Shown in pieces: positions 4,854 through 14,457 of a stretch of DNA of 64,000 nucleotides. The stretch lies in the IMG/VR virus record IMGVR_UViG_3300046777_002658, positions 1-64,000 of that record, one strand, 5' to 3'. The stretch is from a virus. Within the stretch, counting starts at the first letter, position 1. Each line of letters begins with the position of its first letter. The notes under the pieces are model-generated. The model was not told the origin of the DNA and did not search any database. It was given only the letters and a program-made list of their open reading frames with translations. The translations under genes and the position numbers were made by a program.

Positions 4854-6125
4854 ATGTACAGATGTCAGCAAATTCTCGTTAAGCCTGATAAATCAACAAC
4901 TGCAATCTTGGAGTACGTCTGCACAGAAGCTAAAAAGCTAACAAATTGTGGCGTTTACTATTCCAGGCAGATGTATTTTAAAACTGGACGCATTCCCAGT
5001 AGGGCAGACTTACACAAGCAGTTGGGGACTTATCAGAAAAACATTCATTATCAAGCGTTGTATTCTGATACTTCCCAGCAAATACTAACCAGTGTAGCTG
5101 AATCGTTTAAGTCATACATTGGATTGGCAAAAGCCGCTAAAAAGGGTGAAGTCTCCCAAAAACCACGATTACCTAATTACTGTAAAAGTGTTATGACTGT
5201 AGCTACTTTTACGGGTAGGTCATTAAAGTTAATTAATGGGATGATTAGGTTTCCTTTGGGGACAAAAGTTAAAGCATGGTTTGGGATAGATTCTTTTTGT
5301 CTACCGATGCCATCTAATCTTGATTTTAAATCAATCAGAGAAGTACGCATTCTGCCTAGAAATAGACAATTTTATGCAGAATTTGTCTATCAAGTAAATG
5401 AAGTGCAGTCTGATGTTGACAAAAATAATGTTTTAGGAATTGACCACGGATTGAATAACTGGTTGACCTGTGTTTCTAATCTAGGAACATCATTTATTGT
5501 TGATGGACTTCATCTAAAAAGTTTAAATCAGTGGTATAACAAATCAATCGCTAAACTTAAAAGCTATAAACCACAGGGCTTTTGGTCTAACAGGTTAGCT
5601 GCTATTACAGAAAAAAGAAACCGACAAATGCGTGATGCAGTGAATAAGGCTGCAAGAATAGTCATTAACCATTGCGTTGAGAATAAGATTGGCACTGTTG
5701 TTTTTGGATGGAATAAAGGACAAAAAGACAGTATTGATTTAGGTTCTAAAACCAATCAAAAGTTTGTCCAAATTCCCACAGCAAGATTAAAAGACCGTAT
5801 TGCCCAATTATGTAAACAATACGGAATAGATTTTGTTGAAACAGAAGAATCATATACCTCTCAGACTTCGTTTTTAGATAATGATGTTATGCCTAAGTTC
5901 GGTGAAAAACCCGAAGGGTGGACAGCAAGTGGAAAACGGATTAGTCGTGGTGTCTATAAAACTTCTGATGGGTTCAAACTTAATGCAGACTGCAATGGTG
6001 CTGCTAATATTTTGAGAAAAGTAGCGGTGATGCTAGGAGTTGATCTTAGCGGAATCAGTAGAGGCTGTTTAAGTCAGCCTAAGAAAGTTCGTTTATGGAC
6101 TCTTCAGAAATCTCCGCGTCTTTAG
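4854..6125 (+). CDS. tnpB: TnpB RNA-guided nuclease, RuvC-II-rearranged type without zinc finger
   Basis: RuvC-I LGIDHG; VVFGWNKG in place of the usual Glu; ETEESYTSQ; RuvC-III NADCNGAANI. Confidence 0.95.
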   Translation: MYRCQQILVKPDKSTTAILEYVCTEAKKLTNCGVYYSRQMYFKTGRIPSRADLHKQLGTYQKNIHYQALYSDTSQQILTSVAESFKSYIGLAKAAKKGEVSQKPRLPNYCKSVMTVATFTGRSLKLINGMIRFPLGTKVKAWFGIDSFCLPMPSNLDFKSIREVRILPRNRQFYAEFVYQVNEVQSDVDKNNVLGIDHGLNNWLTCVSNLGTSFIVDGLHLKSLNQWYNKSIAKLKSYKPQGFWSNRLAAITEKRNRQMRDAVNKAARIVINHCVENKIGTVVFGWNKGQKDSIDLGSKTNQKFVQIPTARLKDRIAQLCKQYGIDFVETEESYTSQTSFLDNDVMPKFGEKPEGWTASGKRISRGVYKTSDGFKLNADCNGAANILRKVAVMLGVDLSGISRGCLSQPKKVRLWTLQKSPRL

Positions 6126-6140
6126 ACCGGAGAAGCTTAA

Positions 6141-6303
6141 CACTTTTGAGTATGAAGGGGAGACGAGAGTAACTTTCTGGGAGGAAGAGGATGGCCTTCT
6201 ACTTGTTGAAGTAACCTTTAAGTCTGGGGTGAAGCAGAAAGTCAATATCGGAGAGCTAGATGAGTTTATAAAAGCTAACATCAGTGATCTTGTAGAGGTT
6301 TAA
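6141..6303 (+). pseudogene. 3' half of the phage gene interrupted by IS605
   Basis: TFEYEGETRVTFWEEEDGLLLVEVTFKSG...DLVEV-stop has no start and is in frame with VEHKLEGFELYKKYFT left of the IS. Confidence 0.7.
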
Positions 6304-6379
6304 AATAAATACAAACCTCTATAGGTTCGATAAACTAGTTTAAAATAGCAAACAATTAAAACAACAAGGAACTAAACCG

Positions 6380-6631: not shown

Positions 6632-6957
6632 ATATAGACTTTGACCTCCTAAAAGCCAACACCAAATTACCAATACCCTTTTTCGATGAGAATGGTAAGA
6701 AAATAGGTGTAATAACTTCTCTATCATAGGAGGAAGGGCTATTAAAAGGACAGGCAATAATGCACCCAGGCATAGAAATAAAAATGACACTAGCTGTAAA
6801 AGAAGAGTTTGAGACTACAGGCGAAGCTAAAGTTAGACGTACCCTTCTGCACAATCAGTATCAAGAAGCAAGTCAGCAGATTATCCCTCAACTAACTGTT
6901 GATAACCCAGAGCAAATAAAAACTGAAGATGATATTCTAGAAGCTGCTCAAGACTAA
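6628..6957 (+). pseudogene. Hypothetical phage gene with in-frame TAG at 6727-6729
   Basis: ATG 6628 overlaps the previous stop; MNIDFDLL...ITSLS-TAG-EEGLLKGQAIMHPG... is in frame with track ORF 6760-6957. Confidence 0.6.
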
Positions 6958-10294: not shown

Positions 10295-10336
10295 TTTTTG
10301 CTAACTTATGTTAACAAATACATAAGTTAGCAAAAA
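10295..10336. terminator. Long hairpin with T and A tracts (bidirectional terminator-like)
   Basis: TTTTTGCTAACTTATGT-TAACAAAT-ACATAAGTTAGCAAAAA, 17-bp perfect stem. Confidence 0.6.
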
Positions 10337-10429
10337 AAGTATAGGCTATGACAGAACTTAGCCACAAAGACCGCCAGCACTGGTTAAACAACAGAACATA
10401 TTCAACAACAAAGCTTACTGGAGATTATA

Positions 10430-10591
10430 ATGGTTAACGAATTAAAGGAGATTCTATATTCAGTGCAGTTAGTTAGACAGCTTCTAAGTGGTAGTTGGTT
10501 TCTAGTAGCAGATTACAACAGAGATAAAGTTGTGTGGTATAGAAAACCACCGGAAGGCTATTATGTTCTAAAAGTAGAGGAATGGGTTTAG
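10430..10591 (+). CDS. Small hypothetical protein (53 aa, below track cutoff)
   Basis: GGAG RBS; MVNELKEILYSVQLVRQLLSGSWFLVADYNRDKVVWYRKPPEGYYVLKVEEWV; stop abuts the next ATG. Confidence 0.55.
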   Translation: MVNELKEILYSVQLVRQLLSGSWFLVADYNRDKVVWYRKPPEGYYVLKVEEWV

Positions 10592-10816
10592 ATGCGCAAG
10601 GGCAACCTTGAAACTATAGAGTTAGAGTGGTTTAACCCAAAAGAGGCAGCTCCTAAGCAACTGTCTTGGGTTTTAGTAAAAGATGATGATGACAACGTAT
10701 ATCTCTGCAAGTATATAGGGGACAGATACTACCCTGAAAGTGGAATATACATCAGAGACAACTGGGTAGCAAAAGAGTGGTCTTATTTCCCCTTTAAACA
10801 CAATAGTAGACCTTGA
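10592..10816 (+). CDS. DUF551-like small phage protein
   Basis: EWFNPKEAAPKQLSWVLV...VYLCKY...VAKEWSYFP follows the W.....P...VLV...W..P pattern. Confidence 0.5.
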   Translation: MRKGNLETIELEWFNPKEAAPKQLSWVLVKDDDDNVYLCKYIGDRYYPESGIYIRDNWVAKEWSYFPFKHNSRP

Positions 10817-10841
10817 ACAAAAGTAGCTTTTAAAGTATAAT
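10813..10841 (+). promoter_or_regulatory. Sigma70-type promoter ahead of the tRNA/ncRNA cluster
   Basis: TTGAAC, 17-nt spacer, TATAAT. Confidence 0.65.
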
Positions 10842-10931
10842 ACTGTTATGTAGTGCAAAACGTCTTGCAAAAGCAGAACAAATAGTCCGCTCAGAGTGTA
10901 TATGAGCCCAGTATGAAGGTAAGCTGGTAAG

Positions 10932-11030
10932 TAGTAGGTGGCGGATGGTTGACGCGCTTGTCTAGTGTTATTCAGAAATGAATGGTGCAGTGGCACAAGG
11001 AAAGTGGGGTTCGACTCCTCACCCTACTAA
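10932..11030 (+). tRNA. tRNA-His(GTG)-like gene with a 26-nt hairpin inserted in the anticodon loop
   Basis: Acceptor TAGTAGG/CCTACTA; D arm GCG..CGC; anticodon stem CTTGT/ACAAG; loop CT-[10964-10989]-GTG-GC; T loop TTCGACT. Confidence 0.6.
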
Positions 11031-11060
11031 TTGCCCTAAATGTCTCCTTGAAATGTTACT

Positions 11061-11096
11061 GTTTTAGATTAGCTGGGGGCAAAGCTAATCTAAAAC
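11061..11096. terminator. Perfect 14-bp hairpin
   Basis: GTTTTAGATTAGCT-GGGGGCAA-AGCTAATCTAAAAC. Confidence 0.55.
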
Positions 11097-11125
11097 CTTC
11101 TTAATCAAAAGTAAAACTGAGTTTT

Positions 11126-11326
11126 ATAAGCAAAACACAACCAATCATTAATACTGCATCCTTAGCCACCTCTTTGTACAGAGCTTACGGCGACTCTGCT
11201 GAGTGGAAAAACTTCCAGGGTAACAAAATGCCAGAGTGAGGAGAACTGCCAGATAATATCAAAAAGCATTAGACTGAGGTTGCTAATTACGTTAATGAAT
11301 TACTAGAACAACAAACAGTTTGTTAA
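11126..11326 (+). pseudogene. Small phage gene with three G-to-A-type lesions (ATA start, TGA, TAG)
   Basis: (M)SKTQPIINTASLATSLYRAYGDSAEWKNFQGNKMPE-TGA-GELPDNIKKH-TAG-TEVANYVNELLEQQTVC; both stops fall where Trp is expected in the MPEW..LP....W motif. Confidence 0.65.
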
Positions 11327-11346
11327 AGTTGTGATATACTGAGTTT

Positions 11347-11472
11347 AGTAGAGTGACTGAGAGGCTTAAAGTTGAATCCTAAACTAATAAAGGACTTGAC
11401 TTGCTAATGTGGATAAGTGACGCAAGACAGTCAATACTTATCGACTCGTGGGTTCTAATCCCACCTCTACTA
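11347..11472 (+). tRNA. tRNA-Ser(GCT)-like gene, 126 nt, with extra hairpin and long variable arm
   Basis: Acceptor AGTAGAG/CTCTACT; D arm ACT-GAGAGGCTTAA-AGT; TTGCTAA loop; variable stem GATAAGT/ACTTATC; T arm GTGGG-TTCTAAT-CCCAC; extended -10 TGATATACT just upstream. Confidence 0.55.
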
Positions 11473-11893
11473 ACCTTCTCGTTTTGCGAGAACCAGCACT
11501 GCACTGGAGTTGTGTGGCTTCATGCCAATAGCTGATGCAGACACAGACTGGTAAAGCTGTGAATGAAATAAAGCCTGGTAGTTTTCTCACCCTAGCCGCA
11601 TGACAGAACAACTAGGGGTTCACCGTTAGCATCTAAGGATGTAAGAGGAGACAAAGTTAGTATAGTTATCTTAACAACTGTAAAAGGCGTAACTCTAGGA
11701 ATAGTCTGGTTTCCTGTAGGCGAATCTCTCCTTGCACTACTCACAGTTAATAAAGCACTAGTAGCTGAGTTTGAGAAAGCTAGTGTATTAAAGAAGGGAA
11801 CTCAGAGGTTAAACCAATAATAAATCCGACCCGCCCAGTAACGAGGAAAGCAAAACAGGTACAGTTGTTTAGATAGTTCTACTAATAGAAAAT
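11473..11893 (+). ncRNA. Large multi-helix non-coding RNA, GOLLD-like
   Basis: No ORF. Helices: CCCTAG/CTAGGG (11590/11612), AACAACTGTA/TACAGTTGTT (11673/11860), GAGGAGA/TCTCCTT (11645/11727), GCACTAG/CTAGTGT (11755/11780), loop-crossing CTGAGTT/AACTCAG (11765/11799), CAGACT/AGTCTG (11544/11703). Lies inside a phage tRNA cluster. Confidence 0.6.
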
Positions 11894-11970
11894 GGAGAAT
11901 GTAACTCAATAGTAGAGTAGAAGCCTTTAAGAAATTAATTAAATCTGAGTTTAAATCTCAGCGTTCTCCA
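11894..11970 (+). tRNA. Degenerate tRNA-Lys-like gene with unpaired anticodon stem
   Basis: GAGAATG/CGTTCTC acceptor; ACTC/GAGT D stem; CTGAG-TTTAAAT-CTCAG T arm; CTTTAAG loop flanked by non-pairing strands. Confidence 0.5.
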
Positions 11971-11975
11971 CATTC

Positions 11976-12046
11976 GGGGGTGTCGTATAGAGGCATTATG
12001 TCCGATTGTCTATCAGAAGAAGGCGGATCGTTACCGCTCACCCTCG
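11976..12046 (+). tRNA. trnD: tRNA-Asp(GTC)
   Basis: GGGGGTG/CACCCTC acceptor, G73, loop TTGTCTA (GTC at 12008-12010) with one stem mismatch, T arm GGCGG-ATCGTTA-CCGCT. Confidence 0.7.
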
Positions 12047-12068
12047 TTCTAGTTTATCTAGAAGTTAT

Positions 12069-12128
12069 TCCTCTTTAGTTCAGTGGCAGAACGATCAGTC
12101 CTTGGTTCAAATCCAAGAGGGGGAGCCA
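12069..12128 (+). tRNA. 60-nt tRNA-Asn-like RNA lacking the whole anticodon arm, with encoded CCA
   Basis: TCCTCTT/AGGGGGA acceptor; GTTC-AGTGGCA-GAAC D arm; only GATCAGTC before the CTTGG-TTCAAAT-CCAAG T arm; ends G-CCA. Confidence 0.65.
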
Positions 12129-12202
12129 CCAAGCCTGGGCTAAAGGTAAGCCACCTCTTTTGGGAAGAGGATATCATGTAAGTTCGACTTCAGCGGCGTG
12201 GA
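12129..12202 (+). tRNA. trnP: tRNA-Pro(TGG) with distorted T arm
   Basis: CCAAGCC/GGCGTGG acceptor (one mismatch); GGCT/AGCC D stem; CCTCT-TTTGGGA-AGAGG anticodon arm; starts immediately after the preceding CCA. Confidence 0.7.
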
Positions 12203-12237
12203 CCTGTTAGAGAAAACTCAAACACCCTAAAACTACA

Positions 12238-14457
12238 CTAGAAGTAATCATCACTACTCCAGCTTCCACCATCATTTCTACTTGTACCCCAACCTTTATA
12301 AGCTGTCTTTATCTGGGAGGCTAACTCACGCCCAGCTCCTGCAAAAGCTATATCCAAATTAGGGTCACCAGGTAAAAGCTTTGCTTCTTTGCTTTCACTT
12401 CTTATAGCCGTACCCTGTATAGCCGAGCTTAAGTCGCTCATTAAATGCCAGGCTACCACTGCTACTGCATCACAGATATCTTTAGAATTATGAACAATGA
12501 TGCCGGCAGCTAAAGCAAAGTTATCCCACTCATCAACCTCTAGGTCATAAACAGGTACAGGGCTATCAAGAGTTACAGGAATAATACTTTTAACTTTGTA
12601 CTCTTTATTTGGCTTGACAGGCATTAAGCAAGTGATACCCGGTGCTATATCCTTTGCCTGTATATAGTTCCCTGTTCTAGTCATAAAAAGATGTTCAGGA
12701 GTACATCTAACAACAGCTTCTGTGTCTAGAACAACGTTTAGCAGGTGTGTGACCTCTTTAGTCTTTCTACCTTTAGCTCTACCAGGTACAATAGTCCCGT
12801 CAGGCTTACAACTATAAACCCAAACCTCTCGGTTTTGTAGTTCAGCAATTGTTGGTTGTGTACCATCAAGCAAGGGTATTCTGGTTTCCGCAGTAAAACA
12901 GCCGTCTTTGCGGTGGTCGATCTTTCTATTTTTTATTAGTTGAATACCAAACATCTCTTCTTTTAGCTTATTACTCCAAGGAGAATCTTTAGGCAGGACT
13001 AACCTGTTTTCATGAAGTAGCTTTCTAGCAAAGTCATAAATCTCTAACTGCTTAGTTTGTGAGAAAGTAATGATACTAGCGTTTAACCCTGTCATCTTCA
13101 AACGCTGGACAGTCTCAGGATTGTAATGGTCACTAGTAATCTTTGTTAAGGGTCTACTGCCATGAATTTGGTAAATAGCCTGGTAGACATTACTAATACC
13201 AACCTGCTGACCTATATCTGGTTCCCAAGCTAACAAGCCATCAATAACTGCAATCTTCTCCCCGCTTCTTACCTCTCTATGACCAAAAGCGATCGCAAAG
13301 GCATCCCTAACAAAAGCTGGGTCGAGGTGCATTACTGAGGATTGTGTAAACCTTCTGATATCCTTTAGTTCCAATCTTACAAGATTATCATCTGCTGGGG
13401 GCAACACGTTAACTCTCAAAACACTATTGCCAGTAAAAGCTCTTTCTACTTCCTGGTCATTAAAAAAAGAGTAAGCGCGGTTAAACCTAACTCCCTCAAA
13501 CTCTAGAGCAGCGTTTCTAGGGTCTAGATCATACTCACCCTGAATGATAGGATTGTCTCTACTAGCATGAACAGGGTTTAAGTCCCATGATCGTAATCTA
13601 TAACCTAACCAACCATTACTAGTTTTGGCTTTGTTATATAAAAACTGGATAGCGTCGCCCTCGCGCCAGGCAGAAGAGATGGCCACTTTTTTAGCATCAA
13701 CACCAAATGTTGTGCCAGAAATGCCTATGTTAGACCATAGCTCAATAGCCTTACTCTCACCGTCCTCTGTCCCGCCTTCATCAAATCTGGCTACCTCATC
13801 CATTACTAAGAGAATTACAGATGAACCAACTTGAGAAGCAGAGTTAGAGTTACCGCTGTAGATGTGGAGTAGCTTCTCTGGGTATTTAACCTCTTCCTCA
13901 CCAATTATCAACTTTTTCTGGTCTATCAGTCTTTTAAGGGGAGGAATATACTCTAATAATGCTCTAGCCTGCCCGAATATAGTCTTTTTTGTTTGTGTAG
14001 CACTTGTGGCTATACAGTAGATAGCAATAGGAGTAGAAGCAGCAATGTTGTACTTTTTTTGAGGGGACTTTAGCATACAGAGTTTATAAAACTCGTAAGC
14101 CACTATGACAGAAGCAGACCAACTTTTTCCAGCTCGTCTGCCAGCCTCCATACACAAAGACTGAAATGGGACACCAGCCTGGTAGAACTCAGGGTTTATG
14201 CTGGTTCTGTCTAACTCGTACCAAGCTTCAAGTAAAGCTATATCTTCTTCATCTAGCTCTAACCCATAAAAGGTTTTAAATAGTAGATACTGCCTGCGGT
14301 GTATTTCCGTGACACCCCAACCTTCTCTATCAATAACATTATCTACAAAGTCAACAATATCTTTAGCTACATCACTATGTCCTAGCTGATCATTTATAGA
14401 ATCAACTAAGCTACCGAAAAAGTCATCTACACTAAGTCCACTTCCTTTTAATGCCAT
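12238..14457 (-). CDS. terL: Terminase large subunit containing a mini-intein
   Basis: Walker A GRRAGKS, Walker B LLVMDE, nuclease MHLDPA..DAFAIA, C-terminal DH..DG/SKD..DAV split by the intein. Confidence 0.92.
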   Translation of the reverse strand: MALKGSGLSVDDFFGSLVDSINDQLGHSDVAKDIVDFVDNVIDREGWGVTEIHRRQYLLFKTFYGLELDEEDIALLEAWYELDRTSINPEFYQAGVPFQSLCMEAGRRAGKSWSASVIVAYEFYKLCMLKSPQKKYNIAASTPIAIYCIATSATQTKKTIFGQARALLEYIPPLKRLIDQKKLIIGEEEVKYPEKLLHIYSGNSNSASQVGSSVILLVMDEVARFDEGGTEDGESKAIELWSNIGISGTTFGVDAKKVAISSAWREGDAIQFLYNKAKTSNGWLGYRLRSWDLNPVHASRDNPIIQGEYDLDPRNAALEFEGVRFNRAYSFFNDQEVERAFTGNSVLRVNVLPPADDNLVRLELKDIRRFTQSSVMHLDPAFVRDAFAIAFGHREVRSGEKIAVIDGLLAWEPDIGQQVGISNVYQAIYQIHGSRPLTKITSDHYNPETVQRLKMTGLNASIITFSQTKQLEIYDFARKLLHENRLVLPKDSPWSNKLKEEMFGIQLIKNRKIDHRKDGCFTAETRIPLLDGTQPTIAELQNREVWVYSCKPDGTIVPGRAKGRKTKEVTHLLNVVLDTEAVVRCTPEHLFMTRTGNYIQAKDIAPGITCLMPVKPNKEYKVKSIIPVTLDSPVPVYDLEVDEWDNFALAAGIIVHNSKDICDAVAVVAWHLMSDLSSAIQGTAIRSESKEAKLLPGDPNLDIAFAGAGRELASQIKTAYKGWGTSRNDGGSWSSDDYF
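12487..12900 (-). mobile_element. 138-aa cis mini-intein (Hint domain, no homing endonuclease)
   Basis: Block A CFTAETRI; block B CTPEHLF; block F VYDLEV; block G IVHN followed by Ser+1. Confidence 0.93.

Follow-up and report, generated by a model that had tools for sequence, protein, structure and literature searches.

The RNAs of phage tRNA regions, such as RNAC and RNAD of T4, GOLLD, and ROOL, are a long-standing puzzle. The question raised by the present locus is whether a further RNA of this kind lies at positions 11473-11893 of the window, i.e. the first 64 kb of an IMG/VR phage record of 196,877 bp with an estimated completeness of 94%. GOLLD and ROOL are phage and prophage RNAs that often lie close to tRNA islands, and they have no known function; many GOLLD members are over 800 nt, and the 3' region of GOLLD is universally conserved (PMC12286853). 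In the first-pass annotation, the whole stretch was proposed to be a single ornate RNA of about 420 nt, GOLLD-like or otherwise giant, with at least six complementary pairs, a long-range helix of about 19 bp, and two pseudoknots. The flagged stretch is composed of two parts, an element of ~180 bases (X) followed by an element of 231 nt (Y), and is not one giant GOLLD-like RNA.

The stretch is located inside a non-coding block of 1.4 kb (about 10817-12237). One flank of the block consists of small ORFs on the + strand that follow a gene for a 5-hmdU DNA kinase, and the other of the minus-strand gene of the large terminase, which carries an intein. Among named phages, those with the most similar terminases are Microcystis phages of the Ma-LMM01/MaMV type (36%) and a Microcoleus phage, and Leptolyngbya genomes also hold proteins related to the phage terminase. 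This similarity gives distant support to the label 'cyanophage', which appears reasonable for the phage, and the position of the stretch within its tRNA cluster had been correctly recognised. Many closer terminase relatives, at 65-91% identity, are present in public assemblies (protein search; P0001-P0023). The terminase gene itself (12238-14457, minus strand) contains the Pfam domains Intein_splicing and PT-HINT; its homologues (P0001-P0100) include intein-free proteins of ~600 aa, mini-intein proteins of ~740 aa, and proteins of 1000-1470 aa with LAGLIDADG endonuclease domains, and the intein site shows high mobility within this group of phages. An IS605-type TnpB gene with an OrfB_IS605 domain and a Cas12f1-like TNB domain is found at 4854-6125 (+ strand).

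Terminase-anchored searches of IMG/VR provided two related lineages, L002 and L007, that have a tRNA cluster at the equivalent place, as well as a metagenome contig, L262, that is a near-duplicate of L007. The terminase of L002 is 79% identical to that of the window. The tRNA content is wholly different among the three lineages, with nine healthy tRNAs in L002, three in L007, and about three genes in the window, and the tRNA scores are 20-40 bits in the window cluster (10817-12237) compared with 43-66 bits in the relatives (L002 10425-11354). In L007 and L262, the segments adjoining the tRNA cluster (6001-6309 and 5580-5888, respectively) match only terminase residues 637-739, i.e. the C-terminal part, so that the gene is either interrupted at the cluster or has its 5' part located elsewhere. 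A HEARO RNA (RF02033, 101.8 bits) is present on the minus strand of L002 at 14036-14330, a few kb from the tRNA cluster of that lineage.

In the window, the non-coding block is headed by a promoter-like site (10813-10841, + strand; TTGAAC, 17 nt, TATAAT), a consensus match only, which would fit + strand transcription of the cluster. Two tRNA-like elements precede the flagged stretch. Element A (10932-11030) is called by ARAGORN as a tRNA-His with a 26-nt 'intron' and is kept in the L007/L262 lineage (L262 about 6680-6780, minus strand). Comparison by eye with L262 shows a change from G-C to U-A in its T stem and from A-U to G-C in the hairpin of its insert; since pairing is retained across the latter change, the insert hairpin seems to be selected rather than decayed. 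A perfect 14-bp hairpin at 11061-11096 (+ strand), 3' of element A, is terminator-like with a poor T tail, and it is conserved in L007 and L002. Element B (11347-11473, + strand) is degenerate, with a good acceptor and T arm and an oversized middle; its Rfam tRNA match (11370-11472) scores 20.4 bits, under the gathering score of 29 bits, and its ARAGORN call requires the intron option and a lowered threshold. On the other side of the stretch are the tRNA-like gene D (11895-11969, + strand; Rfam tRNA, 40.4 bits) and two weak tRNA genes at 11976-12046 (34 bits) and 12129-12202 (28 bits, Pro-TGG by ARAGORN). Gene D has an irregular anticodon arm, 17 unaligned nt standing where this arm belongs in the Rfam tRNA model. 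The block also contains tRNA-like elements with oversized or absent anticodon arms, and several of its tRNA genes (gene D itself, 11895-11969; about 12061-12128) keep the acceptor, D, and T arms and have an abnormal or absent anticodon arm.

The interpretation of 11473-11893 as one large ornate RNA, related to or resembling GOLLD or ROOL and forming RNA-only multimers, is favoured by its location in a phage tRNA island, as is often the case for GOLLD and ROOL (PMC12286853). It is also favoured by the lack of ORFs, which was confirmed: the overlapping frames are just TTG/GTG frames of 35-57 aa, and the indels relative to the relatives are not multiples of three. A covariance-model search had been suggested in the first-pass annotation. 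All 4227 Rfam families (Rfam 15) were compared by cmscan with positions 10300-12700 under permissive filters at E≤10, and the window was searched in addition at gathering score. At E≤10, positions 10300-12700 gave tRNA matches and three noise matches only, with no GOLLD, ROOL, or other large RNA, and no tRNA match fell within 11474-11893; at gathering score, neither GOLLD nor ROOL was matched anywhere in the window. The flagged region is therefore like GOLLD (RF01998) in belonging to a phage and lying inside the tRNA cluster of a 197-kb record, whereas neither X nor Y matches the covariance model of GOLLD or of ROOL (RF03087). The region also differs from GOLLD in size, being 421 nt, and in its conservation, since conservation is confined to the 5' ~180 nt, the 3' 230 nt being lineage-specific.

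The pairing statistics are similarly unfavourable to a single large RNA. Perfect complements of 6, 7, and 8 nt number 33, 8, and 3 in the region compared with 26.6, 7.0, and 2.1 in shuffles, so that the complementary pairs listed previously are not above chance. One proposed pseudoknot (11765/11799) is among the 8 heptamer complements for which 7.0 are expected from shuffles, and the other (11645/11727) competes with a conserved helix of X (H4, below) whose changes preserve pairing; the pseudoknots are thus at chance level, and there is no supported pseudoknot of the type that would recall GOLLD or ROOL. The folding energy of the whole 421 nt is only marginally better than that of shuffles (MFE z = -1.68 on the + strand and -0.52 on the minus strand), which is close to the absence of excess stability that had been named as evidence against the reading, and the MFE fold retains X and Y as two separate domains that fold independently.

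The long-range helix, the one significant pairing on the side of a large RNA, is real and longer than described. Annotated as about 19 bp (11664-11682 with 11860-11878), it extends over 11657-11682 and 11860-11885, with 22 Watson-Crick and 2 G-U pairs in 26 positions on the + strand, where both wobble positions read as G-U. When the 421 nt were dinucleotide-shuffled 200 times and the 1.4-kb non-coding stretch was shuffled 60 times, 22/26 was never reached, the maximum of the null being 20; across the entire 197-kb genome, just 3 inverted repeats within 600 nt attain 22/26 or more. The other two lie outside the window, at 75897-75959 and 78263-78322 of the whole record (G000); they score 23/26 and 22/26, have loops of 11 and 8 nt, and are hairpin-type repeats that are possibly terminators. 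Both arms of the long helix belong to Y. Only the first 180 nt of the stretch are conserved, the remainder is missing in relatives, and the conserved unit is 145-183 nt. Overall, the reading as one large ornate RNA is already largely refuted and appears extremely improbable; of the original annotation there remains a candidate non-coding structured RNA in the tRNA cluster, without the GOLLD-like or giant identity.

The composite nature of the region follows from the comparison with L007 and L002 by blastn and MAFFT, in which X alone is covered. X (11474-11655, + strand) fills the gap between element B, the 3' end of which sets its start, and element Y. Its homologue in L007 (6677-6859, minus strand; 183 nt) occupies exactly the interval from tRNA-Glu to tRNA-Asp, and that in L002 (10893-11037, minus strand; 145 nt) exactly the interval from tRNA-Arg to tRNA-Ser. 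The arrangement between tRNAs recurs in L262, and X is flanked by tRNA or tRNA-like genes of the same strand in all three lineages. The slot that corresponds to Y is empty in L007 and holds two tRNA-Ser genes in L002.

The identity of X is 146/180 (81%) with L007 and 108/142 (76%) with L002, while the four-fold codon sites of the flanking genes are identical at 35/52 (67%) and 277/648 (43%), respectively. Because the identity of X exceeds that of the four-fold sites, X is under purifying selection. The neighbouring tRNA-Asp is 94-97% identical to that of L002, and X has diverged far more. Therefore X, being above the four-fold sites and well below tRNA-Asp, is neither freshly exchanged nor drifting. 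Coding potential is rejected, since the indels of 22, 16, and 1-2 nt are not multiples of three. The distribution of X is narrow: pattern scans of viral, metagenome, and genome sequences gave only the L002 and L007 lineages and L262, blastn of positions 10800-12250 against 50,697 phage records gave no match for X, and a covariance model built for X (R1) matched only the three lineages and had no match in the records of nine more distant relatives. X is therefore dispensable for the wider group.

A fold of seven helices with 44 pairs was placed on the three-way alignment of the window, L007, and L002. In the 5' part, all on the + strand, H0 (11476-11481/11487-11492) is a hairpin of six pairs directly 3' of element B; H1 (11499-11503/11536-11540) has a G-C pair that is changed on both sides to A-U in L007 and L002; H2 (11508-11518/11524-11533) has two one-sided changes with pairing kept; and H3 (11542-11546/11557-11561) has an A-U pair that is changed on both sides to G-C in L002. 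The 3' domain (11581-11652, + strand) consists of H4 (11581-11588/11645-11652, + strand), in which one pair is U-A, U-G, and C-G across the three lineages, enclosing H5 and H6. The stem of H5 (11589-11593/11615-11619, + strand) is re-written in L002, where C-G and U-G have both become U-A, and H6 (11629-11633/11638-11642, + strand) has one pairing-preserving change. The deletions in L002 respect this fold, as the 22 nt removed are the whole tip of H2, with H1 retained, and the 16 nt removed are exactly the loop of H5.

In this fold, 94.3% of the paired cells are able to pair, compared with 35-48% when the partners are slid by 1-3 columns, and changes on both sides of a pair are found at 4 pairs in 4 different helices, compared with 0-1 in the slid controls. 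Column shuffles of the alignment did as well in 17 of 500 cases, a control that relatedness alone can beat, and covariation cannot reach statistical significance here because there are only three independent lineages, two of which are close. The covariation, on the lack of which the earlier reading of a structured RNA was to fall, is found in the first 180 nt and is modest. Thermodynamic support is weak and inconsistent, with MFE z values of -1.93 (window copy), +0.27 (L007), and -0.73 (L002), and the paired columns are not more conserved than the unpaired ones in comparison with L002. H0 is the weakest helix, with two pairs broken by single changes in the relatives and none compensated.

In a rival reading, X would give no functional RNA and would be a spacer or a decayed tRNA remnant, conserved for example through processing determinants of the adjacent tRNAs or recent exchange of the cluster among phages. 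An MFE z near zero in two of the three homologues, the uncompensated breaks in H0, the narrow distribution, and the visible degeneration of the window cluster, with tRNAs at 20-40 bits as opposed to 43-66 bits in the relatives, are all in keeping with such an origin. However, the identity of X is far over that of the four-fold sites (76% vs 43%), yet well under the 94-97% of tRNA-Asp, and four compensatory pairs are accompanied by clean deletions of hairpin tips. In addition, none of the three copies shows a cloverleaf, ARAGORN at a threshold of 80% detecting no tRNA in any lineage, and for this reason a decayed or intron-bearing tRNA was rejected for X. Furthermore, X persists through a complete change of the neighbouring tRNA content; from this persistence alongside a completely different tRNA set in each lineage, it can be argued that X is selected for itself. 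A spacer or remnant is thus unlikely, and X, which is absent from Rfam, is most likely a candidate for a new small structured RNA.

The closest precedent is provided by RNAC and RNAD of T4. These are small non-coding RNAs among the phage tRNA genes, come from the transcripts of that region (PMC3014915, PMC9697503), and were both detected by Northern blot (PMC9697503); their roles are still not known (PMC3014915, PMC9697503). Like them, X is a candidate for a non-tRNA RNA between tRNA genes of the same strand, and its ends, which abut tRNAs, suggest that a route of release by processing may be shared. X is unlike them in host group and predicted fold, and no sequence similarity was found by blastn among the 50,697 phage records, which presumably include T4-like phages.

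The second element, Y (11656-11886, + strand), is a lineage-specific insert of 231 nt that is closed by the long inverted repeat. The 5' arm (11657-11682, + strand) and the 3' arm (11860-11885, + strand), which ends in CTACTAA, are 85% complementary. The 177 nt between them (11683-11859) have no detectable excess of structure, ORF, or promoter-like site: the MFE z is +0.48 on the + strand and +1.08 on the minus strand, no better than shuffles, the frames are non-ATG frames of 35-50 aa only, and no promoter-like site is found inside Y on either strand. Y is absent from the slot in L007 and L002 and from elsewhere in the records of five relatives, it has a single copy in the 197-kb genome, and scans of the phage database and viral and genome pattern scans gave chance matches or nothing. 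No occurrence of the exact repeat-arm pattern was found in 185,579 species genomes or in IMG/VR. Y has no similarity to the tRNAs of the relatives or to the remaining cluster, and the only ARAGORN call in it is implausible and needs an intron of 100 nt. Two further candidates were accordingly rejected, namely a decayed or intron-bearing tRNA, as Y resembles no tRNA of the relatives, and a repeat family, as there is no second copy in the genome, no paralogy in the cluster, and no copy in the records of five relatives. The sole non-random feature of Y is the terminal inverted repeat of 26 positions, and since there is no homologue at all, nothing supports a function for Y.

In RNase III processing stalks and hairpin-type RNase P substrates, a long helix is formed from distant inverted repeats in stable-RNA units. 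The stem of Y is comparable to the processing stems of rRNA-operon and 4.5S precursors in that a helix of ~26 bp would lie in a stable-RNA transcription unit, a pure analogy; it differs from them in being conserved nowhere, and the enclosed 177 nt show no sign of a functional RNA. Alternatively, Y could be an element at the DNA level, either a MITE-like mobile remnant or a local inverted duplication, with no function as RNA. Imperfect terminal inverted repeats of 26 bp that bound 229 bp, an unstructured interior without an ORF, and the restriction of Y to one lineage, at a slot where the relatives vary as well, point in this direction, and other mobile DNA is present in the phage (the IS605-type TnpB gene at 4854-6125 and the terminase intein). 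Like MITEs, Y (about 230 bp) is non-coding, has terminal inverted repeats at its ends, and is found in some and missing in others when close relatives are compared. Unlike them, Y is single-copy, no family members were found even when the exact arm pattern was sought in the species genomes and IMG/VR, and a clear target-site duplication cannot be made out; both ends may carry a TA, which is palindromic and hence uninformative. There is also no empty-site allele among the relatives, since their slot differs by more than Y. An element of this kind is possible, if rather doubtful.

In short invertons, a segment of about 150-300 bp lies between repeats of about 20-30 bp, and the geometry of Y is typical of them. 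If Y were an inverton, a recombinase would flip the 177-bp segment and thereby alter the expression of the downstream tRNA-like genes. A serine recombinase is indeed encoded in the genome (Resolvase domain, 111.8 bits), but it is about 170 kb distant, and no dedicated recombinase is nearby; no tyrosine recombinase was found in the genome. This serine recombinase was located outside the window, at G000 181367-181780 on the minus strand, within an open frame of 457 aa. The repeats have 4 mismatches in 26, and an internal promoter-like site is lacking on both strands of Y, so that an inverton is very unlikely. Overall, Y may equally be a processing stem or the relic of a mobile element, and an inverton is less likely.

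At its foot (TTAGTATAG...CTACTAA), Y is similar to elements A and B with their acceptor-type ends, and CTACTAA terminates all three (A, 11023-11030; B, 11465-11473; Y, 11877-11886). The end of Y, TTCTACTAAT, is also identical to 10 nt of the type I-D CRISPR repeat of Synechocystis 6803 (PMC3575380, PMC9123187). A mimic of the CRISPR repeat was set aside, because the match was selected post hoc and does not extend, and is probably due to chance.

The preferred scheme, in which confidence is moderate, accommodates both elements as two unrelated + strand modules of a tRNA-cluster transcription unit: 1) X, a small structured RNA that would be released by tRNA processing, and 2) Y, a lineage-specific insert bounded by a hairpin. 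In the first module, an RNA with about seven helices in two domains would be kept by purifying selection within a narrow cyanophage-like clade. It may be co-transcribed with the tRNAs in a polycistronic + strand precursor, from which its 5' end would be cut by RNase Z or an equivalent enzyme and its 3' end by RNase P, giving a discrete RNA of 145-183 nt by a route such as that of RNAC and RNAD. We infer this excision because X, in every lineage, begins immediately 3' of a tRNA or tRNA-like gene and stops exactly where the next folded element has its 5' end. The product would probably be trans-acting, with a regulatory or a protein-binding role. In the second module, Y would have been inserted or replaced in the lineage of this phage only, at the slot that is variable in the relatives. 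In the transcript, its arms could form a long double-stranded stem, i.e. an RNase III-type or 4.5S-like processing stem, which may also set the 3' boundary of X.

A further reading, which is quite improbable, would make the cluster a tRNA-punctuated operon for non-coding RNA. Here X would be the payload, the tRNA-like genes around it, whose acceptor and T arms are intact while their anticodon arms are ruined or absent, would serve mainly as cutting signals for RNase P and RNase Z, and the foot of Y would be a substitute RNase P signal. Acting in trans, the payload might for example serve as a sponge or a decoy, with a host factor or a tRNA-directed defence as its target, or it might be a small self-assembling RNA.

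Given the modest support for the preferred scheme of two modules and the narrowness of the clade, X is better regarded as a candidate RNA family than as a surprise. The label 'GOLLD-like giant RNA' should be dropped, which is a useful negative result, and the striking long helix belongs to the orphan insert Y and not to the conserved fold. Among the RNAs of phage tRNA regions, X would add a small and tractable example from cyanophage-like phages. It is kept as the neighbouring tRNA genes swap, vanish, and degrade, which is a hint that X, and not the tRNAs, may be the selected product in this lineage.
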